Virus record (IMG/VR): IMGVR_UViG_3300027260_000002
Reading direction: 5' to 3' (one strand)
DNA: 64,000 bases
From: a virus
Lineage: Duplodnaviria > Heunggongvirae > Uroviricota > Caudoviricetes
In this document: positions 2,878 through 53,382 of the stretch, piece by piece
How positions within the stretch are numbered: the stretch's first letter is position 1
Layout: each line of letters begins with the position of its first letter
Made by a program: the position numbers and the translations under genes
Notes under the pieces: generated by a model
What the model was told of the DNA's origin: nothing
Seen by the model: only the letters and a program-made list of their open reading frames with translations
Databases searched by the model: none

Positions 2878-3982
2878 TGCACTCTTTCTGATATCGGTTC
2901 CAGCTTTTGCAGGCGTGGGATCGATATCAGAATTTCAGGGTGGAGGTTCTGTAAAGCGTGGTGCAAAAGTTGCACCTGCTGCTAAAGGCTCGAGTATCGA
3001 GAAGAACGATACTGTGTCGACCAATTCTCAAGGTAAATTTAAGATTCGATTCGTCGATGCCACCACTGTGAACATCACACAGAATTCACGGCTGGTCATC
3101 GACGATTTCGTATATGATGGAAACAATAAGAGCAAAGGCAAGCTCGGTTTGAAGCTAGCTTTAGGAACTGCAAGATATACTTCTGGAGCGATTGCTCATG
3201 GCAATGCTCGTGGTGTCGGTATACGTACACCGACTGCAACGATCGCCGTAAGAGGTACAGACTTTGTCATGTCTGTCGACGAAGCTGGCAGATCGACAGT
3301 CGTTCTTGTTCCTGAATGTTACAATGACAAAGATATCACAAAGATCAACTTCGAATGCCCATCAGGAGCTATCGACGTGATCACTGCTGCAGGTATCGTC
3401 ACTCTGACTCAGCCATTCCAAGCAACGATGGTCGAGAATTCTTATGCGCCTCCTGCTCCTCCTGTCGTCATCAATCCTTCAATGAAGGGTATGGACAACA
3501 ATATTCAGATCTCTCCCCTCGAAACCGATGATGGACAATCACTGATCACAGCAGCTCGTGAAGCTTTGAAGAAGTTTGTCAATCCTGCAAAAGCGGCATC
3601 TGACGATAACCAAGATCCAAATACTGGCGGAGATGGTGTAGAAGAAGTAGCGGTGGCTACACTTCGTTTGCCTACACAGAATGAACTTCAAGAAATTTAT
3701 GCAGAGTATAATTCTGGAAAGAGGCCTACAGAAACCGTTTATACGAACGTATCGCCCACTTTTAAGAAGTTGGTGCAGGTAGGTTGGGTATACTCGAGAA
3801 TCTCTGAAGATAAGAATCAAGTTGTCGTGGTATGGTTACCAAAAGATACTGAAATCCAAATGATTTCATCTCATAATGGTGTCGTCGACGCATACAATTT
3901 TATGGATGATAAATGGACTACGACTGGCACAGGTAGACCGCAAGGAAATATCACCGTGATACAAGAATCGGGTGTAAGATGA
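2846..3982 (+). CDS. secreted protein with FecR-like beta-sandwich region
   Basis: N-terminal hydrophobic signal. Central segment IRFVDATTVNITQNSRLVIDD...IAVRGTDFVMSVDEAGRSTVVLVPEC matches the FecR-domain pattern (GT.F.V ... V.V.EG). Start is uncertain because it overlaps the previous gene by 32 nt. Confidence 0.4.
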   Translation: MVRLILKLAINALFLISVPAFAGVGSISEFQGGGSVKRGAKVAPAAKGSSIEKNDTVSTNSQGKFKIRFVDATTVNITQNSRLVIDDFVYDGNNKSKGKLGLKLALGTARYTSGAIAHGNARGVGIRTPTATIAVRGTDFVMSVDEAGRSTVVLVPECYNDKDITKINFECPSGAIDVITAAGIVTLTQPFQATMVENSYAPPAPPVVINPSMKGMDNNIQISPLETDDGQSLITAAREALKKFVNPAKAASDDNQDPNTGGDGVEEVAVATLRLPTQNELQEIYAEYNSGKRPTETVYTNVSPTFKKLVQVGWVYSRISEDKNQVVVVWLPKDTEIQMISSHNGVVDAYNFMDDKWTTTGTGRPQGNITVIQESGVR

Positions 3983-5441: not shown

Positions 5442-6026
5442 ATGTTTATTTTTATACATGATAATGGCAATCTAAATGTTTTATCTATGACTAAGTGCGG
5501 TCATACGGCTATGTCATATTATTTTGGAATAGAACTACCAATGCAAAAAACATTTGCGCATTGGATAGAAGGAGAATCTCCGAAAGTAGTAGTATTAAGG
5601 CATCCAGTAGAACGTATGCATTCTGCTATTAATTTTCATGAAAAGCAATTTAATGAACGAATAGTAAAGTATAAAACCACCGGAGAATGCGACGACTTTT
5701 CTCTTATTGAAGACTTGATTAACTGGGATGATCGTCAACGAGAGTGGGAAATTGAAAGATTTATTTTTAATCAACACTGTCGTCCATATATGCATATTAT
5801 AAAAAATAGAGATTTTAGAATTATAAAATTTGAAGATCTATCTCAATATATTCCAAAGATATCACCCCGAGGCGCTGAAACCAATACTACTAATAGAAAT
5901 ATAGATCCTTTTCCAAAGAATAGATACTTTAAACGGGAAGATATGATAAAAGAGATTGAATTGTATGAGAGTCTTTTAGTAAATAGAGAAGTTATAACAC
6001 CCGAAGAATGGAAAGCGCTGACATGA
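5442..6026 (+). CDS. sulfotransferase-family protein
   Basis: ATG 5442 directly after the upstream stop. TKCGHTA (PAPS 5'-phosphosulfate-binding-like) and RHPVERMHSA (RxPxxR 3'-phosphate-binding-like). Markedly AT-rich relative to its neighbours. Confidence 0.45.
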   Translation: MFIFIHDNGNLNVLSMTKCGHTAMSYYFGIELPMQKTFAHWIEGESPKVVVLRHPVERMHSAINFHEKQFNERIVKYKTTGECDDFSLIEDLINWDDRQREWEIERFIFNQHCRPYMHIIKNRDFRIIKFEDLSQYIPKISPRGAETNTTNRNIDPFPKNRYFKREDMIKEIELYESLLVNREVITPEEWKALT

Positions 6027-8071: not shown

Positions 8072-8077
8072 GGTAAT

Positions 8078-8692
8078 ATGATTGATGATACGATGATGGC
8101 TTCTTATCGAGCTGAATTTGAGAAAAATGGTTTTGTTAAAATTAAAAACGTTCTGTCTCCTGAGATCATAGAGCTATATAAATCCTTTATCGATATCTCT
8201 CATCTCGATGATATGAGAAGGAGAGAAACGGGTCCATACTTAGGCGGAGACATTCAGTCTGTTGATGGCAACGTTCTCGATAATAGCATACTCTTATATT
8301 GCAAACATATCGTAGAAAAAATATGGGCAACCGATAATATGGTTCCTTCGTATGCCTATTCACGAGAATATTTTCGTGGAGCTGAACTCAAAAATCATCG
8401 AGATCGCGAAGCGTGCCAGTACTCCATCACTATCACGATGTGTAAGAGGGGAGAAGGAACGTCTGCGCTATTTTTTAGCGACTCAGATGATAAGAGCAAT
8501 CCGATACCGGTCGACCTTGATGAAGGTGATGCCATCATTTTCAATGGCGGATCAAACTATGGAGGCAAGTGGCACTGGAGAGATCCTCTCGAAATGGATT
8601 CATTAATCCAGCTATTCCTCCACTACGTCCATCCTGATGCATCACATCTTGCTGAAAGAGATTATCCAAGACCTTTTTATCGTTCACGCTGA
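8078..8692 (+). CDS. 2OG-Fe(II) oxygenase, phytanoyl-CoA dioxygenase (PhyH)-like
   Basis: N-terminus YRAEFEKNGFVKIKNVLSPEIIELYKSF is PhyH-like. HRD...H iron-binding candidates are present. Confidence 0.45.
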   Translation: MIDDTMMASYRAEFEKNGFVKIKNVLSPEIIELYKSFIDISHLDDMRRRETGPYLGGDIQSVDGNVLDNSILLYCKHIVEKIWATDNMVPSYAYSREYFRGAELKNHRDREACQYSITITMCKRGEGTSALFFSDSDDKSNPIPVDLDEGDAIIFNGGSNYGGKWHWRDPLEMDSLIQLFLHYVHPDASHLAERDYPRPFYRSR

Positions 8693-9774: not shown

Positions 9775-10194
9775 ATGGCATCTGAACGCGTAGGTATCGT
9801 AGCAAGTTGTTTTGATTTGTTTCATGCAGGTCATGTCCTTATGCTGATGGAAGCGAAGGAAAACTGTGATCGTCTGGTTGTGGCCTTGCAATCGGATCCG
9901 ACGATCGATCGTCCTGAGAAGAACAAGCCTGTTCAAGCTTTGTCTGAGCGTTATATTCAGTTGGAGGCATGTAAGTATGTTGATCAGATAATTCCATATG
10001 ACACAGAAGCAGATCTACTGAACCTGTTGACTGGATATGATTGGGATGTTCGATTCCTCGGTGATGACTATTTTCACCGTGATGATTATACTGGATATGG
10101 TTTAGATCTTCAAGTAAAGTTTCTTTCCAGGAAACACGATTATAGTTCGTCTGGTTTGCGTGATCGGATCTTAAAGGCAGGAAAAAGCAAATGA
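9775..10194 (+). CDS. cytidylyltransferase-like nucleotidyltransferase (HxGH motif; TagD/RfaE-domain-II-like)
   Basis: GIVASCFDLFHAGHVLML matches the (T/C)FD(L/I)xHxGH signature of glycerol-3-P cytidylyltransferase / ADP-heptose synthase domain II. Confidence 0.6.
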   Translation: MASERVGIVASCFDLFHAGHVLMLMEAKENCDRLVVALQSDPTIDRPEKNKPVQALSERYIQLEACKYVDQIIPYDTEADLLNLLTGYDWDVRFLGDDYFHRDDYTGYGLDLQVKFLSRKHDYSSSGLRDRILKAGKSK

Positions 10195-10634
10195 GTAAGT
10201 GGGCAGCACGATTCCTTGATCTCGCCGACCATGTTGCGACATGGTCAAAGGATCCTCGGACACAAGTAGGTTGTGTCATTGTAGATAAGCACAATCGTAT
10301 CGTCTCGCTTGGTTTCAATGGCTTTCCTCGTGGTGTAAAAGATCTTGCAGAGAGATACAACGATAGGCCTACGAAGCATCTGTTCGTAGCTCATGCCGAA
10401 CGGAACGCGCTCGACAATGCGCCACTGTCTGTCGAAGGCTGTACACTTTATAGTCCTCTTCTACCGTGCAGCGAATGCGCCAAGAGTATCATTCAGAAGG
10501 GAATTACGAAGGTGGTATCGTATGAGCCAGTTGAAGACGTCGAACATTTTCACTGGCATGTCACAAAACAAATGTTTTTAGAAGCTGGAGTTCAACTCTA
10601 TCTTATAAATAAAACTGTCACGCCTAATGGGTGA
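10191..10634 (+). CDS. cd: dCMP deaminase
   Basis: HAERNAL (zinc His/Glu) and PCSECAKSI (PCxxC) motifs of the cytidine/deoxycytidylate deaminase family. Confidence 0.8.
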   Translation: MSKWAARFLDLADHVATWSKDPRTQVGCVIVDKHNRIVSLGFNGFPRGVKDLAERYNDRPTKHLFVAHAERNALDNAPLSVEGCTLYSPLLPCSECAKSIIQKGITKVVSYEPVEDVEHFHWHVTKQMFLEAGVQLYLINKTVTPNG

Positions 10635-21923: not shown

Positions 21924-22315
21924 TTGTTCAGAACGCAGTAAATTGTTTGTCATGTGGAGATCTCATCATCTCTAAACATCGTCATGACTTTGTAAATTGC
22001 ACTTGCGGTGCTGTATGGGTAGATGGCGGTCAGGACTACCTGCGTCGTGTAGGTGACTTTGAAAACGCCGTCGACTTGTCTTGGTCACTGCCAGACAAGT
22101 TATATTTTGATTGTGCTGATGCTGCTGGCCTTGCTATGGATAGCGGTCGTAATACTAAAGGCATCGCCAATGCAGTGATGCGTACTCTTCGTGAAGCTGG
22201 TCGAGTGATCGCCGAAGGTGAACAAAGAATTCTAGCTCATAATCCTCGTATGGATGAGATTATGGTCGAAGAAGCCGATGGCACCATCAATCGTTATAAG
22301 AAAGTTGTAGAATGA
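21920..22315 (+). CDS. hypothetical protein with N-terminal zinc-ribbon-like cysteines
   Basis: CLSCGD...CTCG. Confidence 0.4.
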   Translation: MIVQNAVNCLSCGDLIISKHRHDFVNCTCGAVWVDGGQDYLRRVGDFENAVDLSWSLPDKLYFDCADAAGLAMDSGRNTKGIANAVMRTLREAGRVIAEGEQRILAHNPRMDEIMVEEADGTINRYKKVVE

Positions 22316-23421
22316 AAGAAGCATGCATCGTCGGCTTTGGAATGATCGATGCGTTAGGTGATAATCCCATCGATTGTTGGGAGAATATGCTTAATGATCG
22401 AGACTTCCATAAACCTATCGATCCTCATGTTCATGAAGGCCACAATCTTAAAGTTAAGTACGGGTTTTATCCTGAAATTGATATCGATGAAGAATTACAA
22501 CCTCGAGCAGTAGCTTATGGTATGCATGCGGTTGAGCAAGCTTTACACATGGCAAATTTGCCGCATTCATCGAATGTAGGTGTCATCTTCTCGACTCTTT
22601 TAGGCGGCAACTCGACAAAAGCAAAGTTAGATGCCGAAGGTCGAAAGATGAAACCAAAACAGATCCTTCGCTCAACGATGGATTATCTCTGCAGTCAAAT
22701 CTCAATTAAGTATGGATATACTGGTATCAATACCATGGTGTATTCTGCTTGTGCTACAGGTTTGGTAAGCATCGAATATGCTATGCGAATGCTCGATGAG
22801 TATGACTATGTGATCGTAGGCGGTTCTGATGCTGGCGTAAATCACATGGATCTCTACTTCTTCTCGATTATCAAGGCGATCGGTTCGAAGTCGATGCCAT
22901 TCGATAAGAATCGCGACGGTTTTATTATGGGTGAAGGTGCAGGTTGCATCATCCTTCAGTCGAGAGAAAAGGCCGAAGCGATGGGTTCGAAGGTATATGC
23001 TCGCATCACTGGAGTTTCGAATGCTTCAGATGCACACGATCCGACTGCACCTTCTGGAGCCGGAGCTCGTCTTTGCTTGGAGAAGCTGGATCTCGAAGGA
23101 GTCGACTCAGTCAACTCGCATGGAACCAGCACTCCACTCGGAGATGTGGTAGAGTATGACGTGGTTCGCGAGTTTACTGATGCACCGATCTATTCCAATA
23201 AAGGAAAAATTGGACATACTTTCGCTGCAGCAGGTGTACTTGAAACAATTTACAGTGTACTGTCTATTCAGAACGGTGTGATTCCTCATACCGCTGGTTG
23301 TCAAGACACTGATATGGATGTGGTGATGGAGAACATCGAGACAGATGTCAAGAAAGTTCTTGTCAATTCATTTGGATTTGGTGGTAAGTGTTGTTCAATT
23401 ATTGTTGAAAAGGAAAAGTAA
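22312..23421 (+). CDS. beta-ketoacyl-ACP synthase (KAS I/II, FabB/FabF-like)
   Basis: Active-site blocks YSACATGL (Cys), HGTSTPLGD (His), GKIGHTFAAAG (His), and C-terminal NSFGFGG. Confidence 0.8.
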   Translation: MKEACIVGFGMIDALGDNPIDCWENMLNDRDFHKPIDPHVHEGHNLKVKYGFYPEIDIDEELQPRAVAYGMHAVEQALHMANLPHSSNVGVIFSTLLGGNSTKAKLDAEGRKMKPKQILRSTMDYLCSQISIKYGYTGINTMVYSACATGLVSIEYAMRMLDEYDYVIVGGSDAGVNHMDLYFFSIIKAIGSKSMPFDKNRDGFIMGEGAGCIILQSREKAEAMGSKVYARITGVSNASDAHDPTAPSGAGARLCLEKLDLEGVDSVNSHGTSTPLGDVVEYDVVREFTDAPIYSNKGKIGHTFAAAGVLETIYSVLSIQNGVIPHTAGCQDTDMDVVMENIETDVKKVLVNSFGFGGKCCSIIVEKEK

Positions 23422-26673: not shown

Positions 26674-27279
26674 ATGATAAAGAAACGATTTAGAGAGTTT
26701 GTTGGTAGTGGTACACTCACGATATTCGATATCGATGAGACGCTGTTCCATACATATGCAAAGGTTGCCGTTGTCAAAGATGGCAAGGTTGTTCGAATGC
26801 TAGACAACCAAGAGTTCAACACTTACAAGCGTAAGAAGGGTGAAACCTACGACTTCGGAGAGTTTGCTAACGCAGAAGTATTCCGCAAGTCATCGAAGCC
26901 TATCACTCGTATGGTTGCTAAAACGAAAGCTATCTTTGCCAACTCTCGTAAGAATCCTCATAGTCGAGTGATTATCTGTACAGCACGAGCTGACTTCGAT
27001 AACAAGGATATCTTCCTTCAGACGTTTCGAGATCATGGTCTACCTATCGATAATATCCATGTAGAACGAGCTGGTAACCTGAAGATCGACTCTTCGGCAG
27101 AAGCCAAGAAGATCATCTTCCGTAAATATATAAATACTAAGAATTACGTAAAGCTTCGGTTGTTTGATGATGCTCCTAGCAATCTTCAGGCATTTCTTTC
27201 GTTGAAGAAAGAGTTTCCTGATATTACGTTCGAAGCCTTCTTTGTAAATCCTGATGGATCGGTAAAAACAGTACGATGA
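26674..27279 (+). CDS. HAD-superfamily phosphatase
   Basis: IFDIDETLF (DxDxT motif I). Confidence 0.55.
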   Translation: MIKKRFREFVGSGTLTIFDIDETLFHTYAKVAVVKDGKVVRMLDNQEFNTYKRKKGETYDFGEFANAEVFRKSSKPITRMVAKTKAIFANSRKNPHSRVIICTARADFDNKDIFLQTFRDHGLPIDNIHVERAGNLKIDSSAEAKKIIFRKYINTKNYVKLRLFDDAPSNLQAFLSLKKEFPDITFEAFFVNPDGSVKTVR

Positions 27280-28445
27280 CAAGTTTTAGAAATTTCCTTG
27301 CAGAAGAGCTTGACGAAACTAAGCTGAAGCATCTTGAGCATGCCGAAGATCACGTGATCAATGCTGGCCATGAAGGCTTTTCTCATGCCTATCACAATCT
27401 CAAAGATGTGCATGACAGGTTGACAGGCAAGAAGAACGACACAAGAATCACCATGAAGTATGATGGTTCTCCTTCTGTGGTATTCGGTCGTCATCCTGAA
27501 ACTGGTCGTTTCTTTGTAGCATCGAAGTCTGCCTTTAACAAGAATCCAAAGATCAACTATACGCTAGAAGATATCGAGCGTAACCATGGTCATGCCCCTG
27601 GCCTCGTATCGAAGCTACGAGCTGCTTTACAGCATCTTCCAAAGGTAACACCAAAGAAGGGTGTTTTCCAAGGCGATATCATGCACACTGCTGAGGACGT
27701 GCATGAATCTGATGGGCGTGTACACTTTACACCTAACACCATCACTTACTCTGCTCCGAAAAATTCAGCACATGGTAAGGCTGCTCTCAACTCGAAGATT
27801 GGCGTAGCTATTCATACCAAGTATAATGGTAAGAACCTCGAGGATATGCAAGCCGAGCACGGCGCTCAGCTAAATGACTTTGGATTGCACAAAGACGTGC
27901 ATCTGATTTCGACAGAACATCATCTCGATAACATCAAGTTCACGCCTCAGAATCGCGAGCGCTTTGCAAAGGCTATGACTGCAGCTGCAGCACATAACAA
28001 AAAGGCAAAGCCTGAAACTTATGAAGCTATCAAAGGCCATGAGATTCCTTTGAAAACTTACATTAATCATACTGTTCGTACTGGTACTAAGCCTAGCGTA
28101 GAAGGTTTCATGAACCACTACATGAAGGCACATCAGAAGAAGATCGAAGGTGTGAAGATGGCAGCATCGAAGGCATCTAAGACTGCTGCGATGGAATCAG
28201 ACATCGGTCACGTTCAACGTAATCGTGCTCACTTTGAAAACGTTCTGAACCAGCACAAGCATCTGCAAAAAGCAAAGGATATTCTTGCGCATACGCTGTC
28301 AAGCTCTGCGGAGTTTGATCACAGCATTAACGGCAAGAAGTCGAAGCCTGAAGGATTCGTAGTAGTCAGACATAATCGTCCTACTAAAATCGTAGATCGC
28401 GCTGAATTCTCGGCTGCCAATTTCAATAAGGTTAAAGCTCAATGA
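27276..28445 (+). CDS. His-rich nucleotidyltransferase, ligase/capping-enzyme superfamily-like
   Basis: MKYDGS (KxDG motif I candidate) and PEGFVVVRHNRPTKIVDRAEF (motif IV/V-like EGxVV...K). Intermediate motifs are not convincing. Confidence 0.3.
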   Translation: MTSFRNFLAEELDETKLKHLEHAEDHVINAGHEGFSHAYHNLKDVHDRLTGKKNDTRITMKYDGSPSVVFGRHPETGRFFVASKSAFNKNPKINYTLEDIERNHGHAPGLVSKLRAALQHLPKVTPKKGVFQGDIMHTAEDVHESDGRVHFTPNTITYSAPKNSAHGKAALNSKIGVAIHTKYNGKNLEDMQAEHGAQLNDFGLHKDVHLISTEHHLDNIKFTPQNRERFAKAMTAAAAHNKKAKPETYEAIKGHEIPLKTYINHTVRTGTKPSVEGFMNHYMKAHQKKIEGVKMAASKASKTAAMESDIGHVQRNRAHFENVLNQHKHLQKAKDILAHTLSSSAEFDHSINGKKSKPEGFVVVRHNRPTKIVDRAEFSAANFNKVKAQ

Positions 28446-29053
28446 AATCGATTCATATCACACAAGGACGATTCAATCCTGTTCATGCAGGCCACGAGAT
28501 GGTCGTCAAGCATGTGATGGCAGCTGCCAAGAAAGAAGGCGCAGATCATAAGATCTTGACGACTGGATCTCATGATGCCAAGAAGAATCCTCTGACACCT
28601 GAGCAGAAGGTCAAGCACCTTTCTCGTGCTGTCAAGGGTGCACATGTAGAGGCGATGACGAAGGAACATCCGACTCTGCTCCATCAGATGTCGAAGCTGC
28701 ACAAAGCTGGTTACACACACGTGACTATGCATGTCGGTTCTGATCGTGTTAAAGAGTTTCATGATTTACTTCATAAGTATAACGGTGCAGATATGAAGCA
28801 CGGTCACTACAACTTCAAGAGCATTAAAGTCAAGTCAGTAGGCGGTGAACGTAAAGAAGGCGGAGGTGGAATTGAATCTGCTTCTGGTACGGCTATGCGT
28901 AAGCACGTTACTGCAGGTGATAAGGAATCATTCCATAAGATGGCACCATCGGGAATGAGTAAAGCCCACAAAGATGAGTTATATCACGATGTCCGCAAAG
29001 GCATGGGTGTGAACGAATCATTCATTGTCAGATTTAAAAACTGGATTAGTTGA
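28442..29053 (+). CDS. NadM-like nicotinamide-nucleotide adenylyltransferase-family protein
   Basis: GRFNPVHAGH matches the archaeal/bacterial NMNAT G(R)FQPFHKGH HxGH signature. Confidence 0.5.
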   Translation: MKSIHITQGRFNPVHAGHEMVVKHVMAAAKKEGADHKILTTGSHDAKKNPLTPEQKVKHLSRAVKGAHVEAMTKEHPTLLHQMSKLHKAGYTHVTMHVGSDRVKEFHDLLHKYNGADMKHGHYNFKSIKVKSVGGERKEGGGGIESASGTAMRKHVTAGDKESFHKMAPSGMSKAHKDELYHDVRKGMGVNESFIVRFKNWIS

Positions 29054-46731: not shown

Positions 46732-47154
46732 ATGAGTTGGTTATACGAAGATAAAGAATTTACTGATGTTGAAGATTATTACGGCTTCATATATTTGATT
46801 GAAAATTTGGTAAACGGCAAGAAATATATAGGTCGTAAGTATCTAACAAAAGCCGGATACAAAACTGTCAAAGGTAAACGAAAGAAGCTTCGCGTAGAGT
46901 CCGATTGGCGAGACTACTACGGATCTTCTACTTCCCTCAAAGAAGACATTGATCTCTACGGAAAAGATAACTTTCGTAGAACGATCTTAAGACTCTGCAA
47001 GGGTCGCGGAGAATGTAATTACTTTGAAACAAAATATATATTCGATACAGATGCCATTTTAGATCCTAAATATTACAATAGTTGGGTATCTTGTAAAATT
47101 CAAACAAGCCACGTGAAGGCTTTACTTTTCAACCCCGAACAGGAGAATTTATGA
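46732..47154 (+). CDS. GIY-YIG nuclease-domain protein (homing-endonuclease-like)
   Basis: YGFIYLIENLVNGKKYIGRK is a GIY-YIG signature. Located in the nrd/speD neighbourhood. Confidence 0.55.
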   Translation: MSWLYEDKEFTDVEDYYGFIYLIENLVNGKKYIGRKYLTKAGYKTVKGKRKKLRVESDWRDYYGSSTSLKEDIDLYGKDNFRRTILRLCKGRGECNYFETKYIFDTDAILDPKYYNSWVSCKIQTSHVKALLFNPEQENL

Positions 47155-48156: not shown

Positions 48157-48403
48157 GAATATTCTAATCTATACGAAAGACAACTGCCCTTTTTGTGTAC
48201 AAGCGAAAAACTTGTTTACAAATAAAGGAGAACAGTATATAGAGAAGAAGATAGGAAAAGATATTACGCGCGAAGAGTTTATGGAAAACTTTCCTGACGT
48301 AAGAACAGTTCCTTTCATTATAATTGACACAGAAAAGGTAGGTGGTTATGACAAACTCGTTGAATGGTACGACAGACCAGAACGATCGTTCTTGGCAGAA
48401 TGA
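48149..48403 (+). CDS. grx: glutaredoxin (NrdC/Grx-like)
   Basis: Internal ATG 48149 (MNKNILIYTKDNCPFCVQAKNLF) with ATGAATAA coupling. CPFC active site. Confidence 0.75.
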   Translation: MNKNILIYTKDNCPFCVQAKNLFTNKGEQYIEKKIGKDITREEFMENFPDVRTVPFIIIDTEKVGGYDKLVEWYDRPERSFLAE

Positions 48404-48653
48404 ATATTTAAAGGGCGTTCTCCAAACTGGAATCGCAAATGTATCCTTCATGAAGAAGGACGGAACACAGCGAAATCTTCTATGCACTCTGTTGCCGAGC
48501 GAATTGCCGGCACAGACTGATCTTGAAGAAGCCGTACAGAAGAAGACTCCAAATCCTGAAGTGCTTGCTGTATGGGATCTTGAAAATAAAGGATGGCGTT
48601 CGTTCCGTTACGACTCGGTCCTCGGCTTTAGTGTACTGTCACTCGACGCATGA
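48342..48653 (+). CDS. hypothetical protein
   Basis: Track ORF. Its 5' part overlaps grx, so the real start may be the ATG at 48447 (MKKDGTQRN...). Confidence 0.3.
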   Translation: MVMTNSLNGTTDQNDRSWQNEYLKGVLQTGIANVSFMKKDGTQRNLLCTLLPSELPAQTDLEEAVQKKTPNPEVLAVWDLENKGWRSFRYDSVLGFSVLSLDA

Positions 48654-48991
48654 TTTACATGGTAGACATTGATCAGACCATCTGTAAAACGCCATATACA
48701 GATGGTCAACATCGCTATGGATTGGCAACTCCATTTAAGCATCGTATCGAGAAGATAAATAAACTATACGATCAGGGTAATACCATCATCTATTGGACAG
48801 CCCGTGGTTCAGGATCGGGAATCGACTGGACCGAACTTACTACAAAACAACTAAAAGATTGGGGATGCAAGTTCCACGAAGTCCGTCTCGGAAAGCCATC
48901 ATACGACGTATGGATCGATGATAAGGCAATTGGCGACGGGTTCTTCTTTTACGATGAAGATATGGAATTGCTGAACGCTACTAAGGAATAA
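48650..48991 (+). CDS. small HAD-like phosphatase (GmhB-like candidate)
   Basis: MIYMVDIDQTI (DxDxT). In an operon with heptose-pathway genes. Confidence 0.45.
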   Translation: MIYMVDIDQTICKTPYTDGQHRYGLATPFKHRIEKINKLYDQGNTIIYWTARGSGSGIDWTELTTKQLKDWGCKFHEVRLGKPSYDVWIDDKAIGDGFFFYDEDMELLNATKE

Positions 48992-48993
48992 TA

Positions 48994-49983
48994 ATGAATA
49001 ACCAAGATAAGATTGAACTGAACGAACTGAACAAGGAATCGAATGGTGGAACAGAACTTACCACTCGAAATCTCTTCCACCGACTTTCAAGTGATGAACT
49101 CGATGGTGTCCAAATTATCACTGCTCGCGTCCGCGACCTCGATCCTGACCGAATTAAGATCTATCATTTACATGATCTCGCTGGCGATCCGGAAGCTTCA
49201 CACCTTCAAGATCCAGCTTCTCGAGCTCGCTTTCAAAAGTTGGTCTTCAGTTCTAACTGGCAGTATCAACAGTATCGTGATTATCTTGGAGTTCCATATA
49301 GCAATCATTCAACAGTTATCGAAACAGGCATCGAGCCTATTCCACTCGTTGAGAAACCAAAGGATAAGATACGTCTCATTTATACGTCCACACCTCATCG
49401 TGGACTGGAGATTCTGGTTCCTGTCTTTTGCGCTCTCGCCGAGAAGTATCCTAACATCGAATTAGATGTCTTCTCTTCGTTTGGCATCTATGGTCCAGGT
49501 TGGGAGGGCCGCGACGAAGCGTACAAGCCTCTCTTCGATCGGATGAAGGAGCACCCACAAATCAACTATCATGGTTGGGCAGATCAGGAGACAGTACGTG
49601 CCGCATATCAAAAAGCCCACATCTTTGCGTATCCTTGTATCTGGCCGGAAACTTCGTGCAGGTCTCTTATTGAAGCTATGTCAGCTGGTTGTTTGGCGGT
49701 TCATCCTAACTTCTCTGCTTTGGCTGACACGTCGGGTGGGCTAACTGTCCAGTATGACGGTGATCATGAGAATCCAAATCTGCATGCTAACATCTTTGCT
49801 CACACTCTGATGTATGCCATCGAGAACGTGCAGAACAACGACATTACTAACATGATGTCATTCGTCAAAGCCTACGCAGACACTCGCTTCGGTTGGGATT
49901 CAGTGATTCCCAAGTGGAAGGGACTCATCGCTTCGTTAAAGGAACAACACCGTGATATTGGCCAAAGCACCACTCAGAGTTAG
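48994..49983 (+). CDS. glycosyltransferase (GT-B fold, GT4-like)
   Basis: C-terminal ETSCRSLIEAMSAGCLAV matches the E-x7-E GT4 motif. Confidence 0.6.
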   Translation: MNNQDKIELNELNKESNGGTELTTRNLFHRLSSDELDGVQIITARVRDLDPDRIKIYHLHDLAGDPEASHLQDPASRARFQKLVFSSNWQYQQYRDYLGVPYSNHSTVIETGIEPIPLVEKPKDKIRLIYTSTPHRGLEILVPVFCALAEKYPNIELDVFSSFGIYGPGWEGRDEAYKPLFDRMKEHPQINYHGWADQETVRAAYQKAHIFAYPCIWPETSCRSLIEAMSAGCLAVHPNFSALADTSGGLTVQYDGDHENPNLHANIFAHTLMYAIENVQNNDITNMMSFVKAYADTRFGWDSVIPKWKGLIASLKEQHRDIGQSTTQS

Positions 49984-50902
49984 TTTTTTCGGCGGGGGTA
50001 GTGATATCCCCGCCCACTTTGCACAATGGGGTGGAGCAACCATCTCAACTGCCATCGACAAGTATGTCTATGTAGCAGTCATGCACACTCCTCACGACCA
50101 TGTCAAAGTTTCTTATTCGAAACAAGAGTGTGTAGAGAACGTTGAGGATCTTCAGAACGATATTGTCAAGAACGCTTTGAAATTCTTCGGTATCAAATCC
50201 AACATCGAGATCACATCATTCGCAGACATCCCTACGATCGGCAACGGTCTTGGTGGATCGTCTGCTTTTACTTGTGCTTTGATTAAGGCTTTATCAGCCT
50301 ATCTTGGTTTCGAATACGTAAATCCTTATCTTGTTGCGAAGACTGCTTGCCACATCGAGATCGATCTATGTGGTTGGAAGATCGGCATGCAAGATCAGTT
50401 TGCATCTGCTTTCGGTGGCATGAACTACATTCAATATGCAAATGAGCTTGGCAATGGACGAGTAGATGTGAAGCGTCTCGACTCGAATGCAATCGAGAAC
50501 TACATGATCTTGATTCCTACAAACGTAGAGCATCATGCAGCTAAGATCCTTGATAATATCAACTTTGAAGCAAAGACATTTATTATTCGTCAAATGGCTG
50601 ATATGGCAAATATGCAGGGAACACAGCAAGTGAATATCAATACGTACAGTCAGTTGCTTGATTCTGCATGGGTTCTGAAGAAACAGATGAGTGAAGAGAT
50701 CTCCAACAGTGATATAGATATTATGTACGAACGTTGCAAATCTTCTGGTGCTTTTGGCGCTAAGTTACTTGGAGCAGGAGGCGGAGGATACATGCTAGCG
50801 CTTACAGATTCTAAGAGTGCAATCCGCCAAGAATTCTCAGACAGAACATGCCTCGATGTAGGCATCTCACATGAAGGAGCAAGAGTTGTCTATCGAGACT
50901 GA
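49952..50902 (+). CDS. GHMP-family sugar kinase (D-glycero-D-manno-heptose 7-phosphate kinase HddA-like)
   Basis: GTG start. KAPLRVSFFGGGSD N-terminus and GLGGSSAFTCALIKAL ATP-binding motif. Confidence 0.65.
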   Translation: MILAKAPLRVSFFGGGSDIPAHFAQWGGATISTAIDKYVYVAVMHTPHDHVKVSYSKQECVENVEDLQNDIVKNALKFFGIKSNIEITSFADIPTIGNGLGGSSAFTCALIKALSAYLGFEYVNPYLVAKTACHIEIDLCGWKIGMQDQFASAFGGMNYIQYANELGNGRVDVKRLDSNAIENYMILIPTNVEHHAAKILDNINFEAKTFIIRQMADMANMQGTQQVNINTYSQLLDSAWVLKKQMSEEISNSDIDIMYERCKSSGAFGAKLLGAGGGGYMLALTDSKSAIRQEFSDRTCLDVGISHEGARVVYRD

Positions 50903-51467
50903 CATTATATTCGATCACCTCGGCCTGATTAATATCGGCTTTGCAAGTATCGATCATGAAGAATTTAAAAAAGCAGCAGAACTCATTTGGCTGACAAGCA
51001 TTTCTAATCATCGGAATAACATCTATACAATTGGTAATGGTGCATCTGCTTCCATCGCTCAGCATTGGGCATGCGACTATACCAAAGGTTGTAAGAAAGG
51101 TGGGCTGCGACCAAGAGTTATTTCTTTGGCAGCAAATATTCCACTCATGACAGCCGTGGCGAATGACATCTCTTACGACGATGTTTACTCGTTCCAGCTC
51201 GATGCACTCGGACAAGAAGGCGACGTACTCGTAGCCATCTCTTCGAGTGGTAATTCTCCGAATGTTGTCAAGGCAATTGAGACTGCTAAGTCATTGAAAA
51301 TAAAGACTATTGCCTTGACAGGTTTTTCTCCAGATAATAAGTGCGCTCAACTCGCAGATATCTCTCTACATGTCGATATCCAAGAATACGAGGCAGCAGA
51401 AGACGTCCACCAAGCTATTATGCATATGATTGCTAAATATATCAGAAACAGAGGTAAGGTTACATAA
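50871..51467 (+). CDS. gmhA: SIS-domain phosphoheptose isomerase GmhA-like
   Basis: TIGNGASASIAQH and ISSSGNSPNV ... LTG SIS blocks. Confidence 0.7.
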   Translation: MKEQELSIETDIIFDHLGLINIGFASIDHEEFKKAAELIWLTSISNHRNNIYTIGNGASASIAQHWACDYTKGCKKGGLRPRVISLAANIPLMTAVANDISYDDVYSFQLDALGQEGDVLVAISSSGNSPNVVKAIETAKSLKIKTIALTGFSPDNKCAQLADISLHVDIQEYEAAEDVHQAIMHMIAKYIRNRGKVT

Positions 51468-52222
51468 TGTCACAACAACCAGTATCGATCCATCAGATCC
51501 AAGCACAATTCGGCACAGATAGCGCAAACTATGAAGTACTCACTGACGCAGCCATTCGATCAAAGGGTGTAGAAGGTGCAGCAGTCGAGATTGGTGTCCG
51601 TATGGGCGGTGGTCTACAGTGTATCATCGACGGTCTCGTAGAAAGCGGTCAGACTCCTGAGAAGCCAGTCTTTGGTATCGATCCTTATGGGAACATCGAG
51701 TATTATCGTGACGAGATCTTCAAGGAAGGTCGCTGCGACTATACCAATGAGATGCGCGACATATGCATGATCAACTTATATCTGTATTGCCGTCAGAAAA
51801 ACGTCAACTTCTATATGTTCAACCTCGAAGATACAGAATTCTTTAATCGTTATGCAGACGGTGTTCCTGTCTATGCAGAGCATAAGAGTCTTGTCAATAA
51901 GTATAGCGTAGTTCACTTCGATGGTCCTCACACACTCGAAGCTCTCGATGCCGAGATTGCATTCTTCCTTGAGCGGTCAGATCCTGGCGCTGTCTTCGTC
52001 TTCGATGACGTAGAGATGTACGAACACGGTGCTGTGCACAATCAGTTGCTTGAGCATGGTATGGAAATTGCCATGGAAACTCCTCGCAAGTGGTCGTATT
52101 TCAAGAAAGAACATGTCGACAAAAAGTGGGAACCAGTCGTTGGAACTCCTGGTTGGGAGCCAAACGCAACTCAATATACACCCACCGCCGGTCCAAGTTT
52201 TAATTATAAAATCGACTTGTGA
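51467..52222 (+). CDS. SAM-dependent methyltransferase (TylF/MycF-like O-methyltransferase candidate)
   Basis: EIGVRMGGG glycine-rich motif I. Acidic metal-site candidates FDD/FDG. Confidence 0.45.
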   Translation: MSQQPVSIHQIQAQFGTDSANYEVLTDAAIRSKGVEGAAVEIGVRMGGGLQCIIDGLVESGQTPEKPVFGIDPYGNIEYYRDEIFKEGRCDYTNEMRDICMINLYLYCRQKNVNFYMFNLEDTEFFNRYADGVPVYAEHKSLVNKYSVVHFDGPHTLEALDAEIAFFLERSDPGAVFVFDDVEMYEHGAVHNQLLEHGMEIAMETPRKWSYFKKEHVDKKWEPVVGTPGWEPNATQYTPTAGPSFNYKIDL

Positions 52223-52293: not shown

Positions 52294-53382
52294 ATGGTCA
52301 TTAAGGTTAAAGCTAAACCCAAACAGATCTCTCGTGCGGCTATTCGGTCGATCGATGACAAAGCCTATGGCTCAGAACCCATCGTAATCGATGGCTATAG
52401 CAATGCCTTGAACTGGTATAACTACATGGCATCTGATGATCAGTCGCGTGACTGGTTCTTCACTTATGCCAAGAAGAATTATACCAAGGACCAACTCGTA
52501 CTCCTACGCAAACTTCCAAAGTGGAAGATTTCCAAGACTCTTGGTAACGTTGCACGTATTCTACTGAATGGCAATGAGCTGCCGCAAAAGAATCTCGACT
52601 ACTTCAATGATAGTGTAAAGAATCTCCTTGCGGCAGCTACTCAGATTGTCGAAGAAGTCGAAGACACACCAAAGTCTGTCGTCGATATTCAAGCTCGCAT
52701 TCGTGAGAAGGCCAACTACATCATCACGAGTCTCGAAGAAGAACTCGATAATGTCATCGATGGCAAAGAGTTCTCGATGTACACCTTCTGTCAAGCGAAC
52801 GAGCTGAACGCACAGATTCTCGGCATCGTAGCTGACTATTATCGTCCTCAATATACAGAGATTATGTCGAATGACGAGCAAGTTCAAGAAGCTTTCGGCA
52901 AGCGTCTAAAGTTTTGGATTAACTTTTGGCAGAGTTTCTTCGGTGACATCGATCGTTATGTAAATAACAAGAAGGCTGTCAAGGTTCGTAAGCCACGTGA
53001 AAAGAAAGCAAAGTCTGCTGTCGATCTGGTCAAGAACCTTAAATACCAGAAGGAAGAGCCTTCACTCAAGATTGTCTCTGTCCATCCAGCAGAGGTCGTA
53101 GGATGTACACAGCTATGGGCTTACAACACCAAATACAAGAAGTTGGCTCGATATGATTCGAGTGGTCCAGCTGGAATCCAAGTCAAAGGCACTACCTTGA
53201 TCGGTTATGACGTCGAGACTTCTACAAGCAAAAGCTTGCGTAAGCCAGACGTTTCTATTCAAGCGTTGCTTGGTGCAGGTAAAGTTAGCCTGCGCAAGTT
53301 CATGGACGAGATCAAGACCGTAGAGTCGAAGCCGAATGGCCGAATCAATCAAGACACCATTCTACTAAGGGTTATTAAATGA
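52294..53382 (+). CDS. hypothetical protein
   Basis: 362-aa ORF after a promoter cassette. No assignable motifs. Confidence 0.45.
   Translation: MVIKVKAKPKQISRAAIRSIDDKAYGSEPIVIDGYSNALNWYNYMASDDQSRDWFFTYAKKNYTKDQLVLLRKLPKWKISKTLGNVARILLNGNELPQKNLDYFNDSVKNLLAAATQIVEEVEDTPKSVVDIQARIREKANYIITSLEEELDNVIDGKEFSMYTFCQANELNAQILGIVADYYRPQYTEIMSNDEQVQEAFGKRLKFWINFWQSFFGDIDRYVNNKKAVKVRKPREKKAKSAVDLVKNLKYQKEEPSLKIVSVHPAEVVGCTQLWAYNTKYKKLARYDSSGPAGIQVKGTTLIGYDVETSTSKSLRKPDVSIQALLGAGKVSLRKFMDEIKTVESKPNGRINQDTILLRVIK

Follow-up and report, generated by a model that had tools for sequence, protein, structure and literature searches.

Described heptose routes and related phage clusters

In the characterized pathways (Kneidinger 2001/2002), the GHMP kinase HddA yields the alpha-anomer, and HldC-type transferases use the beta-anomer. 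In viruses, NDP-heptose biosynthetic enzymes are already known, without a known role (PMC11573728). A cluster from a metagenomic phage, consisting of a HAD/kinase, a cytidylyltransferase, and a GT-B glycosyltransferase, yields heptosyl-5hmC in E. coli (bioRxiv 10.1101/2023.12.21.572611), and in Acinetobacter phage DLP3, gp81 is the sugar-bisphosphate phosphatase of an arabinosyl-DNA pathway (PMC13326640).

The locus described here lies in a T4-like phage sequence, of which the whole 64-kb stretch analyzed is called the window (Table 1). Its enzyme set is unlike either textbook route and forms a hybrid in which an HddA-like kinase is combined with an HldC/TagD-like nucleotidyltransferase (NT) and a HAD phosphatase of the EcbF/AfhF type. 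Because the HddA kinase and HldC differ in anomer, one of the two must differ in the window set. We read the locus as encoding a phage pathway that provides activated heptose, along with an enzyme to consume it, and we put the probability of this reading at about 0.72.

Gene layout, conservation, and the nucleotidyltransferase

Table 1. Coordinates in the window of the cassette genes, their upstream neighbor, and the nucleotidyltransferase.
Feature	Length (aa)	Position	Strand	Basis
WYL_2 (DUF2693) small protein gene, upstream of HAD		48342..48653	+	PF10902
Mini-HAD phosphatase gene (HAD)	113	48650..48991	+	DxDxT and other motifs
GT4-type GT-B glycosyltransferase gene (GT)	329	48994..49983	+	Pfam
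GHMP sugar kinase gene, HddA/WcbL-like, GTG start	316	49952..50902	+	Pfam, NCBIfam, PDB
GmhA-like SIS-domain isomerase gene (SIS)	198	50871..51467	+	Pfam, NCBIfam, PDB
TylF/MycF-type SAM-dependent sugar O-methyltransferase gene (MT)	251	51467..52222	+	Pfam, AF2/Foldseek
Cytidylyltransferase-fold nucleotidyltransferase gene (NT)	139	9775..10194	+	Pfam PF01467

The five-gene cassette that the preliminary description had placed at 48650-52222 consists of ORFs with exactly these boundaries, co-oriented and tightly packed. The genes had been called overlapping, which is nearly right because four of the five junctions counted do overlap: the WYL_2 stop and HAD start by 4 nt (ATGA), the GT/kinase and kinase/SIS pairs by 32 nt each, and SIS/MT by 1 nt (TAATG). 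The exception is the HAD-GT junction, which has a 2-nt gap. The cassette genes are real rather than chance ORFs, since Pfam gathering thresholds are passed by the GT, kinase, SIS, and MT (as also by the NT), dN/dS is low in all five (0.04 to 0.25 against four related contigs, similar to RNase H), and 59 of 59 related IMG/VR loci share the gene order WYL2-HAD-GT-kinase-SIS. All five are under strong purifying selection. The WYL_2 protein (PF10902 match, 1e-13) is a constant upstream neighbor, found in front of the HAD in 59/59 loci and also in phiM12, a phage without heptose genes; we do not claim it as a member of the pathway. Around the cassette in the window lie the genes for nrdA/nrdB, ThyX, glutaredoxin, and RNase H; its vicinity shows no T4-type late promoter motif.

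Conservation in the region is highest for the GT (median identity of 95% across 67 loci). Cr30, phiM12/phiN3, DLP6, and a number of MAG-binned phage contigs have orthologs with 40 to 48% identity at the same position (grx-GT-...-rnh), and the GT occurs without the kinase or SIS in phiM12, phiN3, RHph_I1_18, DLP6, and MAG-binned phage contigs L100 to L106. Because many related T4-like phages thus carry the GT alone at the same position, the heptose genes are accessory to a GT core: the GT is an older, conserved phage gene (glutaredoxin-GT-...-RNase H synteny), around which the heptose genes were recruited as lineage-specific donor-supply genes. When 185,579 species genomes were scanned by profile, the matches were almost exclusively phage-like contigs, so that no cellular LPS cluster stands out as the parent. 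The MT is an optional tailoring step: 37 of the 64 related loci covering its slot have it and 27 lack it, and in one locus (L086) a Methyltransf_11/23 enzyme takes its place.

A distance of 39 kb separates the NT from the cassette, and the NT stop overlaps the start of a dCMP deaminase gene (10191-10634). Described earlier as TagD/RfaE-II-like, it is a cytidylyltransferase-like protein (CTP_transf_like PF01467, 1.6e-13 in Pfam; phrog_7878, 6e-37) for which the NCBIfam models rfaE_dom_II (1.9e-18; 67 bits versus a cut-off of 181) and TagD (7.5e-17) are in a near tie, both below cut-off. In NCBIfam and the PDB, it is equally close to glycerol-3-phosphate/ethanolamine-phosphate cytidylyltransferases and to HldC, and many phages that lack heptose genes also carry a member of its family by itself. 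Three independent gene contexts favor the earlier proposal that it serves the cassette. First, in cyanophage SynMITS9220M01, a HAD-NT fusion (SynMITS9220M01_206) has GT-kinase-SIS and a gene annotated as heptose epimerase for neighbors; its N-terminal half is 51% identical to the window HAD and its C-terminal half 43% identical to the window NT. Second, two loci (L084/L085) have the order NT-GT-kinase-SIS-MT, with the NT directly upstream of the GT. Third, in two others (L097/L098), all six genes are contiguous, in the order NT-HAD-GT-kinase-SIS-MT. In Cr30, which has GT-kinase-x-SIS, the NT comes ∼4 kb later on the circularly permuted map, and an NT-...-endolysin-DNA polymerase neighborhood is common to Cr30 and the window. 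Judged by these contexts, the window NT is the predicted missing partner of the cassette.

Enzyme families and the proposed route

The family assignments, conservation, and genetic linkage of the six genes were established from sequence, predicted structures, and genome comparison. The SIS protein (Pfam SIS_2, 1e-18) groups with GmhA, as had been claimed: its top NCBIfam match is gmhA TIGR00441 (4.6e-33; 114 bits, cut-off 209 bits), and in the PDB it matches GmhA at 7e-26, with all matches down to E 6.5e-17 being GmhA or DiaA. Its metal/catalytic positions 61/65/172/180 are H/D/E/H in 7/7 aligned phage homologs, compared to H/E/Q/H in V. cholerae GmhA. H61 and H180 are kept, and the changes from E65 to D and from Q172 to E are conservative and common to the phage homologs examined. 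The kinase, which matches both GHMP_kinases_N and GHMP_kinases_C in Pfam, carries the two motifs attributed to it, PLRVSFFGGGSD at residues 7 to 18 and GLGGSS at residues 99 to 104. It groups with heptokinases and not with mevalonate kinase or galactokinase: the top NCBIfam match is HddA (1e-33; 117 bits, cut-off 600 bits) compared to 4.5e-20 for mevalonate kinase, and the top PDB matches are the heptokinases 4n3o, WcbL 4usk/4usm, and 3k85 (∼1e-27) compared to 6e-10 for mevalonate kinase. A Cr30 gene annotated as D,D-heptose 7-phosphate kinase is 37% identical to it.

The HAD had been called GmhB-like. It is a small HAD phosphatase, with DxDxT (D6-I-D8-Q-T10), T50, K82, and DD90-91 readable in its sequence, but it falls outside the GmhB family. 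It matches phrog_1238 (5e-29), whose label "phosphoheptose isomerase" is a mislabel; the match to TIGR01689 EcbF/BcbF in NCBIfam is weak, and the top PDB match is 9iqw, a "capsule biosynthesis protein" (4e-8). It is 38% identical to DLP3 gp81 (E 1e-12). In L097/L098, the slot is filled by a GmhB-type HAD of a different family, and this nonorthologous replacement pins down the function of the slot.

The GT (Glycos_transf_1 and Glyco_trans_1_4 above gathering; phrog_2170, 3.5e-40) is of the retaining GT4 type. The GT-B fold with E-x7-E proposed for it holds, E219-x7-E227 having both residues invariant among 54 homologs. The top Foldseek matches of its AF2 model (pLDDT 93.7) are SenB, glycogen synthase, HepE, SdgB, GtfA, TarM, PimA, and BshA, which indicate no single acceptor class. 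The MT has a glycine-rich SAM loop, EIGVRMGGG, with Methyltransf_24 above gathering and a weak TylF match. The top Foldseek matches of its model (pLDDT 90.9) are all sugar O-methyltransferases (MeT1 6g80, SpnH, MycF, NovP, and CalS11), in keeping with the tailoring role suggested for it.

We infer heptose as the substrate and the following order of steps. The SIS isomerase would convert host sedoheptulose 7-phosphate to D-glycero-D-manno-heptose 7-phosphate, which the kinase would phosphorylate at C1 to give heptose 1,7-bisphosphate. The mini-HAD would take off the 7-phosphate, leaving heptose 1-phosphate, from which the NT would form NDP-heptose with an NTP. The GT would then transfer the heptose to a putative acceptor, and the MT, where present, may O-methylate a sugar hydroxyl, acting before transfer, on the NDP-sugar, or afterward. 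The earlier view of an activated-heptose pathway with a transferase and tailoring enzymes is thus supported, with refinements; the HAD fusion and the adjacency to the cassette point to the NT as the missing partner. All of the pathway enzymes score below the NCBIfam equivalog cut-offs, far below in the case of HddA, gmhA, and rfaE_dom_II; therefore, the true substrate could be another ketose or aldose phosphate.

Candidate acceptors of the sugar

A rough division gives protein and host envelope glycan equal, tentative shares as the acceptor and gives DNA and any other acceptor smaller shares, again equal. The phages that conserve the GT infect Sinorhizobium, Caulobacter, Stenotrophomonas, and unnamed freshwater hosts, and compared to phiM12, Cr30, and DLP6, the N-terminal domain is 35 to 48% identical and the C-terminal domain 47 to 53%. 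Because the GT, including its N-terminal (acceptor) domain, is conserved across hosts, a strain-specific host O-antigen may be a less likely acceptor than something common to these infections, for example a macromolecule made by the phage (DNA, or a protein of the virion or otherwise). This is the weakest step of the argument.

It is possible that the GT O-heptosylates protein, placing (methyl)heptose on virion proteins (capsid, decoration, or fiber) or on a cytoplasmic protein of host or phage. A conserved phage protein as acceptor would explain the host-independent conservation of the GT. Among the structural neighbors of the GT are SdgB and GtfA, two cytoplasmic protein O-glycosyltransferases. 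Bacterial protein heptosylation from ADP-heptose is mentioned as known in PMC11573728, and phage-encoded virion glycosylation is established for mycobacteriophages (Freeman 2023, as cited in PMC12801897). The GT homolog of Pelagibacter podophage HTVC027P is flanked by a tail-collar-domain gene and an annotated putative structural protein gene; the genes around it are mostly hypothetical. However, the cassette sits in the replication/nucleotide module of the window and its relatives, away from any late promoter motif, a candidate acceptor gene is not consistently found next to it, and the downstream 362-aa basic protein is also found in phages without the GT. In L097/L098, a P4H-type 2OG-Fe(II) oxygenase directly upstream of the six-gene operon recalls hydroxyproline-linked glycosylation, but this adjacency may be due to chance because such oxygenases are so common in aquatic phages.

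An equally tentative reading is remodeling of the host envelope, in which the phage, using what is termed an LPS auxiliary metabolic gene, boosts or diverts heptose supply and (methyl)heptose is added to LPS core, O-antigen, capsule, or S-layer glycan. This is the usual interpretation of homologous genes in cyanophages and pelagimyophages (PMC7378029, PMC7029224). The nearest solved or curated relatives of the HAD are capsule-biosynthesis phosphatases, GT4 enzymes are typical of LPS/EPS synthesis, and GT homologs are labeled "RfaG" or "LPS glucosyltransferase." A large cluster of S-SM2 combines the HAD and NT families with GT11, GT25, and an annotated capsular polysaccharide biosynthesis protein. 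The acidic GT (pI 5.6) also fits, and the variable MT slot recalls O-antigen-type diversification. Against this, the GT ortholog and its acceptor-side domain are conserved in phages of very different hosts, the gene is fixed in the replication module outside any host-recognition island, and the profile scan found almost only phage-like contigs. No flippase, polymerase, ligase, or other membrane-associated partner lies near the cassette.

Hypermodification of DNA, in which the GT would heptosylate a hydroxylated base of phage DNA as T4 glucosylates 5hmC and the MT would add a further layer, appears unlikely. The isomerase-kinase-HAD-NT-GT-B architecture is that of the arabinosyl-5-hydroxycytosine clusters of RB69 and the A. 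baumannii phage DLP3 (PMC13326640), the window HAD is a true homolog of DLP3 gp81, and the heptosyl-5hmC cluster is a precedent. The genes surrounding the cassette, the overlap of the NT with the dCMP deaminase gene, and the lack of a nearby T4-type late promoter motif fit as well. DLP6, whose GT is 48% identical, is listed with restriction-resistant DNA (PMC8228603, table), and 18 restriction enzymes were tried on its DNA (PMC5349666). However, no enzyme that would create the acceptor hydroxyl was found: C5-methyltransferase and TET/JBP domains were absent among the ∼55 ORFs scanned in the window, which covers only 64 kb of the genome and carries ThyX, and both canonical residues, D169 and N177, are retained in ThyA of L086 and Cr30. 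The GT is unrelated in sequence to DLP3 gp79, none of its top 50 structural matches in the PDB carries a T4 alpha- or beta-glucosyltransferase annotation, and it and its orthologs are acidic (pI 5.6 to 6.4). That Cr30 and phiM12 are generalized transducing phages also speaks against DNA as the acceptor.

Least probable is that the SIS/GHMP/HAD/NT set activates another sugar (another ketose-derived aldose or a hexose) or makes a free metabolite, as might be suggested by the scores of all four enzymes below equivalog cut-offs, the distinct H/D/E/H site of the phage SIS subfamily, an NT indistinguishable from TagD-like enzymes, the use of the same isomerase-kinase-HAD-NT logic for arabinose in RB69 and DLP3 (PMC13326640), and the action of SenB, the top structural match of the GT, on a small molecule; the best NCBIfam and PDB matches of the SIS and kinase are heptose enzymes, 7 to 17 orders of magnitude ahead of the next non-heptose family, and the HAD type that replaces the window HAD in L097/L098 includes GmhB.

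On the heptose reading, the gene set of this T4-like phage should make activated heptose, attach it, and methylate it. If the acceptor is protein, the modification would change stability, adsorption, or recognition. If it is the host envelope, superinfection would be blocked or progeny kept off debris, and if it is DNA, the phage would evade restriction and other nucleases.

The cassette and its genomic setting

The window comes from a T4-like myovirus: its gp43-type DNA polymerase is 49% identical to cyanomyovirus polymerases, and it also encodes UvsX, gp41 helicase, primase, gp59, gp32, RNase H, NrdA/NrdB, ThyX, dCMP deaminase, PhoH, and Hsp20. A megablast search with the cassette against 50,697 phage records gave no match, no GenBank phage being similar in DNA, and relatives of the cassette appear to be detectable at the protein level only. 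Kinase orthologues with 83 to 95% protein identity were present in at least 80 IMG/VR contigs, which indicates that the clade is abundant and uncultivated. The five ORFs, all on the plus strand, were recovered at exactly the location assigned in the preliminary description, together with the motifs it had cited. The WYL_2 gene directly upstream overlaps the HAD gene at ATGA, a 2-nt spacer separates HAD from the glycosyltransferase (GT), the GT/kinase and kinase/SIS junctions are 32-nt overlaps, and the SIS and methyltransferase (MT) genes overlap at TAATG. Judging from Pfam domains above gathering thresholds and from dN/dS ratios, the ORFs are evidently genuine genes; the ratios, calculated against four relatives, were 0.04 to 0.25 for all five, similar to that of RNase H. 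The order WYL2-HAD-GT-kinase-SIS was unchanged in 59 out of 59 related loci covering the region.

In a scan of 47.4 to 53.5 kb, sigma-70 promoter and terminator sites were no more numerous than in shuffled sequence. The T4-type late promoter motif TATAAATA, in contrast to a shuffle mean of 2.2 with no shuffle reaching 7, occurred seven times in the window, always on the plus strand. It was absent between 29 kb and 60 kb, which places the cassette within a late-promoter-free stretch.

Mosaicism was seen in the region. In a patch covering the last third (3′) of the kinase gene, DNA identity drops to 65 to 79% with two related contigs, L038 and L030, compared to mostly 90 to 99% in the flanks, and is 73 to 89% with three other relatives; the WYL_2 gene has a similar low-identity patch compared to the same two contigs. 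These patches suggest recombination between diverged alleles inside the cassette. At 1.5 kb upstream, the cassette is preceded by a gene for a homing endonuclease of the GIY-YIG type, similar to SegE. A GIY-YIG endonuclease gene also interrupts the HAD-GT junction on contig L098, and the otherwise near-identical L097 is without it, a presence/absence pattern that fits regional mosaicism.

The cassette is followed by a gene for a basic 362-aa protein (pI 9.4; phrog_11903, no Pfam match), which stands directly after the GT in phages phiM12, phiN3, and RHph_I1_18. It was rejected as a component of the system because it also occurs in phages that have no GT (PA5oct, Moby, and ACP17), and it probably represents a conserved gene of the replication module in its own right. 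Two lineages without this protein after the cassette carry related proteins (on L084 and L097) right after the MT gene, with one small ORF between in L097. These share two homologous segments (E values of 6e-18 and 2e-14), including a "MYATATKQAMGE" motif, and are possible lineage-specific partners.

Other genes of the window deserve mention. One encodes a homologue of the curli-secretion protein CsgG (PF03783, 2e-51); a protein in which a curlin repeat is weakly recognizable comes next, and then a FecR-domain protein and a 687-aa adenylate/guanylate cyclase with a CHASE2 sensor. We know of no description of a membrane sensor-cyclase linked to phage curli-like genes. Pelagimyophages are on record as carrying a curli-like operon (PMC7029224). 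A complete beta-ketoacyl synthase (ketoacyl-synt N domain, 3e-28; C domain, 2e-19), an unusual auxiliary gene, is encoded amid the replication region.

Positions of the features discussed, in the window and in compared contigs or records
Feature	Sequence	Position	Strand	Remark
Cassette (HAD, GT, kinase, SIS, MT)	window	48650-52222	+	
Nucleotidyltransferase (NT)	window	9775-10194	+	
HAD-NT fusion SynMITS9220M01_206	L002 (SynMITS9220M01)	7448-8200		recorded as 'hypothetical protein'
Late promoter motif TATAAATA	window	205, 10604, 18355, 27129, 29073, 60419, 60801	+	
CsgG homologue	window	1293-2117		
Weak-curlin protein	window	2059-2877		
FecR-domain protein	window	2846-3982		
CHASE2 cyclase	window	6008-8071		
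2OG-Fe(II)-oxygenase-like gene	window	8078-8692		
Beta-ketoacyl synthase	window	22312-23421		
DUF6267 gene	window	27276-28445		
CTP_transf_like ORF	window	28442-29053		
SegE-like GIY-YIG endonuclease	window	46732-47154		
Low-identity patch, WYL_2 gene	window	48334-48634		
Low-identity patch, kinase gene	window	50434-50880		
362-aa protein	window	52294-53382		
GIY-YIG endonuclease	L098	2692-3291		
P4H-type oxygenase (2OG-FeII_Oxy_3)	L097	1926-2504		
2OG-FeII oxygenase	L099 (HTVC027P)	1304-1897		
Post-MT protein	L084	11250-12374		
Post-MT protein	L097	7189-9249		

Enzyme assignments and the putative heptose pathway

The best NCBIfam family for the SIS protein was GmhA (4.6e-33), and 15 of its 16 PDB sequence matches were GmhA or the paralogue DiaA, with GmhA structures at the top; the NCBIfam scores lay below the GmhA cut-offs (114.5 bits versus 209.45 for TIGR00441 and 109 versus 276 for NF010546). 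Published structures place the GmhA catalytic/metal tetrad at H61, E65, Q172, and H180 (E. coli/V. cholerae numbering). In the window they read H/D/E/H instead of H/E/Q/H, that is, H61 and H180 are kept, E65 is replaced by D, and Q172 by E. Six other phage homologues have the same H/D/E/H site, which looks like a conservative, subfamily-wide variant, and the S-x-S-G-N-S loop, which binds phosphate, is retained along with the N-D motif. The kinase has GHMP_N and GHMP_C domains above gathering. Its NCBIfam match to HddA (1e-33) was followed by mevalonate kinase (4.5e-20), and in the PDB the C. jejuni 4n3o, B. pseudomallei WcbL, and 3k85 entries scored ∼1e-27 compared to 6e-10 for mevalonate kinase. 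By these scores it groups with heptokinases rather than other GHMP kinases, as the preliminary description had proposed in calling it HddA-like, while remaining below the HddA equivalog cut-off (NF049969; 117 bits versus 600). Of the two outcomes named as arguing against a heptose operon, a galactokinase or mevalonate kinase grouping was not observed, and a loss of the GmhA catalytic residues from the SIS protein is not apparent, H61 and H180 being kept and the other two changes conservative.

The phosphatase, introduced as a "GmhB-like HAD," carries the four HAD core motifs, and that part of the claim stood; membership in the GmhB family did not. There was no Pfam HAD family at an E value of <0.01, the match to TIGR01689 (EcbF/BcbF) was weak, and the best PDB match was 9iqw. 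The enzyme is not a family member but probably a functional analogue of GmhB. The curated or solved relatives of its family are capsule-biosynthesis phosphatases, and it is 38% identical (E value of 1e-12) to gp81 of A. baumannii phage DLP3, which in the arabinosyl-DNA pathway is the phosphatase whose assigned substrate is arabinose-1,5-bisphosphate (PMC13326640). In L097 and L098 the HAD slot holds a Hydrolase_like/HAD_2 enzyme, the HAD type of GmhB, and this nonorthologous replacement is a strong argument that a sugar-bisphosphate phosphatase is required at that position. Both PHROGs and GenBank wrongly call the small HAD family (T4-like GC 306, phrog_1238) "phosphoheptose isomerase," although it is actually a phosphatase, and the present analysis corrects this widespread error; SSM2_207 and SSM2_210 of S-SM2 are among the misannotated public records.

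The NT, located away from the cassette, has a cytidylyltransferase fold (PF01467, 1.6e-13; TIGR00125, 59 bits versus a cut-off of 27.7) with its HxGH motif as FHAGH at residues 16 to 20. It scored 66.7 bits with rfaE_dom_II (TIGR02199), below the cut-off of 181.5 and close to the 61.6 bits for TagD, and ECT and TagD ranked above HldC (5x9q) in the PDB. By sequence alone, it is therefore ambiguous between HldC-like and TagD/ECT-like enzymes. Its C-terminal motif, RKHDYSSS, has tyrosine in place of the arginine of (F/L)xxGRSTT, the "STTR5" hallmark that marks NTP-promiscuous heptose nucleotidyltransferases (PMC11573728). Gene fusion and neighborhood settle its partnership and are the basis of its putative heptose assignment. 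A 250-aa "hypothetical protein" of cyanophage SynMITS9220M01 is 51% identical to the window HAD in its first half and 43% identical to the window NT in its second half, and its gene belongs to a row encoding GT, heptokinase, isomerase, the fusion, and heptose epimerase. Contigs L084 and L085 have the order NT-GT-kinase-SIS-MT. In L097 and L098 all six functions are contiguous as NT-HAD-GT-kinase-SIS-MT. The NT of Caulobacter phage Cr30 lies a few kilobases past the cassette, immediately ahead of the genes for endolysin and DNA polymerase, and this NT-...-endolysin-polymerase neighborhood is common to Cr30 and the window. These contexts support the pairing that had been proposed between this NT and the cassette. 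The nearest NT homologues, in Acinetobacter and Vibrio phages, stand alone in uninformative contexts. Another, weak CTP_transf_like ORF (PF01467, 1.6e-5, and a weaker FAD_syn match) lies downstream of a DUF6267 gene with a 4-nt overlap. It was rejected as the partner because the fusion and neighborhood evidence all falls on the family of the first NT (phrog_7878), and it may be an NMN/FAD-type adenylyltransferase.

Family assignments and genetic linkage were shown; from them we infer the heptose substrate and the order of steps. The SIS isomerase would convert sedoheptulose 7-phosphate to heptose 7-phosphate, the GHMP kinase would form heptose 1,7-bisphosphate, the HAD enzyme would dephosphorylate this to heptose 1-phosphate, and the NT would make NDP-heptose, from which the GT would heptosylate an acceptor, with O-methylation as an option. 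The combination of an HddA-type kinase, an HldC-type transferase, and a non-GmhB phosphatase fits neither textbook route. In known systems the HddA-type kinase forms the alpha-anomer and the HldC-type transferase uses the beta-anomer, and therefore one of the two specificities must differ from that of the characterized enzymes.

The GDP-D-glycero-alpha-D-manno-heptose pathway (GmhA, HddA, GmhB, and HddC), which serves the S-layer glycan of Aneurinibacillus and the capsules of Campylobacter and Burkholderia, likewise has a GmhA-like SIS isomerase and a GHMP-family heptokinase. It runs through isomerase, kinase, phosphatase, and nucleotidyltransferase to glycosyl transfer, often with O-methylation of the heptose. 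However, the window NT has the cytidylyltransferase fold (PF01467) rather than the HddC-type NTP_transferase fold, its phosphatase is a 113-aa EcbF/AfhF-type mini-HAD rather than GmhB, and its SIS site is H/D/E/H rather than H/E/Q/H. With the ADP-L-glycero-beta-D-manno-heptose pathway (GmhA, HldE or HldA plus HldC, and GmhB) and the viral "HBE" enzymes the window shares the HldC/RfaE domain II fold of the NT, whose best NCBIfam match is rfaE_dom_II, below the cut-off; the window kinase is GHMP (HddA-like) and not a PfkB-type HldA/HldE domain I. The HBE nucleotidyltransferases, from which the window NT differs in the absence of the STTR5 arginine, make ADP-, CDP-, or UDP-heptose according to the summary of Tang et al. 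in PMC11573728, where the role of NDP-heptose enzymes in viruses is called unknown.

The glycosyltransferase and its candidate acceptors

PDB sequence searches with the GT and with the MT returned zero matches, and structure prediction was therefore used. The GT scored above gathering with PF00534 (31.3 versus 26.4) and PF13692 (32.6 versus 27), its E-x7-E motif (E219 and E227) was invariant, and its AF2 model (pLDDT of 93.7) showed a two-Rossmann GT-B architecture with GT4-type structure matches at E values of 1e-12 to 1e-10. The protein is thus predicted to be a GT4-type GT-B enzyme. Foldseek searches of PDB and BFVD gave generic GT4-type matches and no single acceptor class, the acceptors among them being small molecules, proteins, teichoic acid, lipid, and glycogen. 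For the MT, PF13578 was above gathering and PF05711 (TylF) reached 16.9 compared to a cut-off of 23. The top 21 Foldseek PDB matches of its model (pLDDT of 90.9) were MeT1, SpnH, MycF, NovP, and CalS11, which refines "SAM methyltransferase" to a predicted TylF/MycF-type sugar O-methyltransferase of the class I SAM fold. The MT slot is variable, being filled in 37 of 64 close relatives and empty in 27, and in contig L086 it holds a Methyltransf_11/23 enzyme instead. The best structural match, MeT1 (6g80, E value of 8e-9), belongs to the mycobacterial methylmannose polysaccharide system, whose GT4-like mannosyltransferase ManT (7qsg) ranked 18th among the GT matches. Both systems pair a small GT-B enzyme with a TylF-type sugar O-methyltransferase in the cytoplasm. 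However, identity is only 12 to 15%, and the mycobacterial enzymes build a cytoplasmic polysaccharide from mannose donated by GDP-mannose, without participation of sugar-activation genes, so the likeness is one of parts only.

The GT is the most conserved gene of the neighborhood (median identity of 95% compared to 91% for RNase H and NrdB), and ∼2,500 homologues were found in metagenomes. Orthologues with 40 to 48% identity occupy the glutaredoxin-(WYL_2)-GT-...-RNase H-DUF6433 position in Sinorhizobium phages phiM12, phiM7, and phiN3, in Rhizobium phage RHph_I1_18, and in several MAG contigs, evidently misbinned T4-like phages; kinase and isomerase genes are absent from all of these. The GT of Stenotrophomonas phage DLP6 also follows glutaredoxin, but at another genome location. 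A GT profile scan of 185,579 species genomes gave only 10 loci, essentially no cellular homologues, and at least five of the 10 had T4-like phage synteny and look like misbinned phage contigs, which means that no bacterial parent cluster was found among these genomes. Donor-side additions differ by lineage: the window clade has gained the heptose set, Cr30 has this set together with a UDP-glucose 4-epimerase, and DLP6 combines a methyltransferase with a GT-A enzyme. The stable element is the GT, not the heptose genes.

Protein and the host envelope are each possible acceptors, with roughly three chances in ten apiece, and DNA is a doubtful one. Heptosylation of protein is suggested by the presence of SdgB and GtfA among the structural neighbors of the GT, by a Pelagibacter podophage homologue encoded between a tail-collar-domain gene and an annotated putative structural protein gene, and by the P4H-type oxygenase at the head of the L097/L098 operon, but the cassette sits in the stretch lacking late promoter motifs. 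Such genes have traditionally been read as modifying the host envelope (PMC7378029 and PMC7029224), and this role is consistent with the capsule-related relatives of the HAD phosphatase and with the multi-GT sugar cluster around the S-SM2 genes; speaking against it, the GT is conserved regardless of host and is fixed in the replication module.

Action on phage DNA would follow the module logic of the arabinosyl-5-hydroxycytosine clusters of RB69 and DLP3, also T4-like phages, which combine a SIS isomerase, a kinase, an HAD phosphatase (in DLP3 the homologous gp81), a nucleotidyltransferase, and a GT-B of ∼315 to 330 aa (PMC13326640). In a metagenomic cluster, "contig 53," the nucleotidyltransferase is likewise a cytidylyltransferase and the transferred sugar is heptose, the product being heptosyl-5hmC (bioRxiv 10.1101/2023.12.21.572611). 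The cassette likewise sits among nucleotide-metabolism genes, and DLP6 DNA was reported to be restriction resistant (PMC8228603). Unlike those clusters, no associated thymidylate-synthase-like hydroxylase, C5-methyltransferase, or TET enzyme was found here. A ThyA N177D/D169N variant or a C5-methyltransferase with a TET-like oxygenase was sought among the scanned ORFs of the 64-kb window, and none was found; nor did the scanned parts of Cr30 and DLP6 yield a base-hydroxylating enzyme. Thymidylate synthase is ThyX in the window and canonical ThyA in L086 and Cr30, and the DLP6 nrdA-nrdB "methyltransferase" was rejected as a base-modifying enzyme because it is FkbM-like, not a nucleotide enzyme. 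In addition, the GT is acidic, and no T4 DNA glucosyltransferase occurred among its best 50 PDB structural matches. The kinase is GHMP in the window and a protein-kinase-like or APH-like domain in RB69/DLP3-type clusters. Kinship of the GT with the DNA arabinosyltransferase gp79 of DLP3 was rejected after hhalign of the GT profile showed no relation, as was kinship of the SIS protein with the arabinose-5-P isomerase gp83, with no detectable sequence relation. Some other acceptor is about as doubtful as DNA.

Genes for 2OG-Fe(II) oxygenases recur near these enzymes. In the window, one such gene without a Pfam match lies 1.1 kb upstream of the NT and matches phrog_2954 and phrog_3531, both mislabelled "ferrochelatase." A P4H-type gene directly precedes the six-gene operon in L097 and L098, and Pelagibacter phage HTVC027P has another 2OG-FeII oxygenase close to its GT homologue. 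The hydroxyl on the acceptor could come from one of these enzymes, or their proximity could be due to chance, since such genes are common in aquatic phages. That the conserved glutaredoxin-linked GT4 enzyme of this large T4-like phage group is a DNA glycosyltransferase, one that in cassette lineages would add heptose or O-methyl-heptose to a hydroxylated base, seems quite unlikely; the base would then be made by a hitherto unrecognized enzyme, for example an unassigned 2OG-Fe(II) oxygenase that hydroxylates thymine or cytosine of DNA in the manner known for base J.

Meaning for T4-like phages

Phage heptose genes have long been noted and were classed as "LPS genes." Systems of this kind are already known, from heptose genes annotated in several phage genomes and from demonstrated viral NDP-heptose enzymes. 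What is new is a defined six-gene hybrid pathway, abundant in freshwater T4-like phages, that is tied to a conserved phage-specific GT4 enzyme and has an optional sugar O-methyltransferase. As a putative complete pathway, the locus makes the question of viral heptose concrete and testable, and the gene for its output enzyme ranks among those best conserved in a highly abundant group of freshwater T4-like phages. The GT occurs in cultivable phages (Cr30, phiM12, and DLP6), in Cr30 together with kinase, isomerase, and NT and thus most of the pathway, so that viral heptose use is directly testable. If the acceptor is DNA or protein, this would be a new modification, bearing on restriction evasion, phage therapy, and sequencing bias; if the DNA-glycosyltransferase reading is true, methyl-heptosyl DNA would be widespread in freshwater and soil phages. 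The alternative outcome, if true, would mean that these phages really do re-sugar the host surface.
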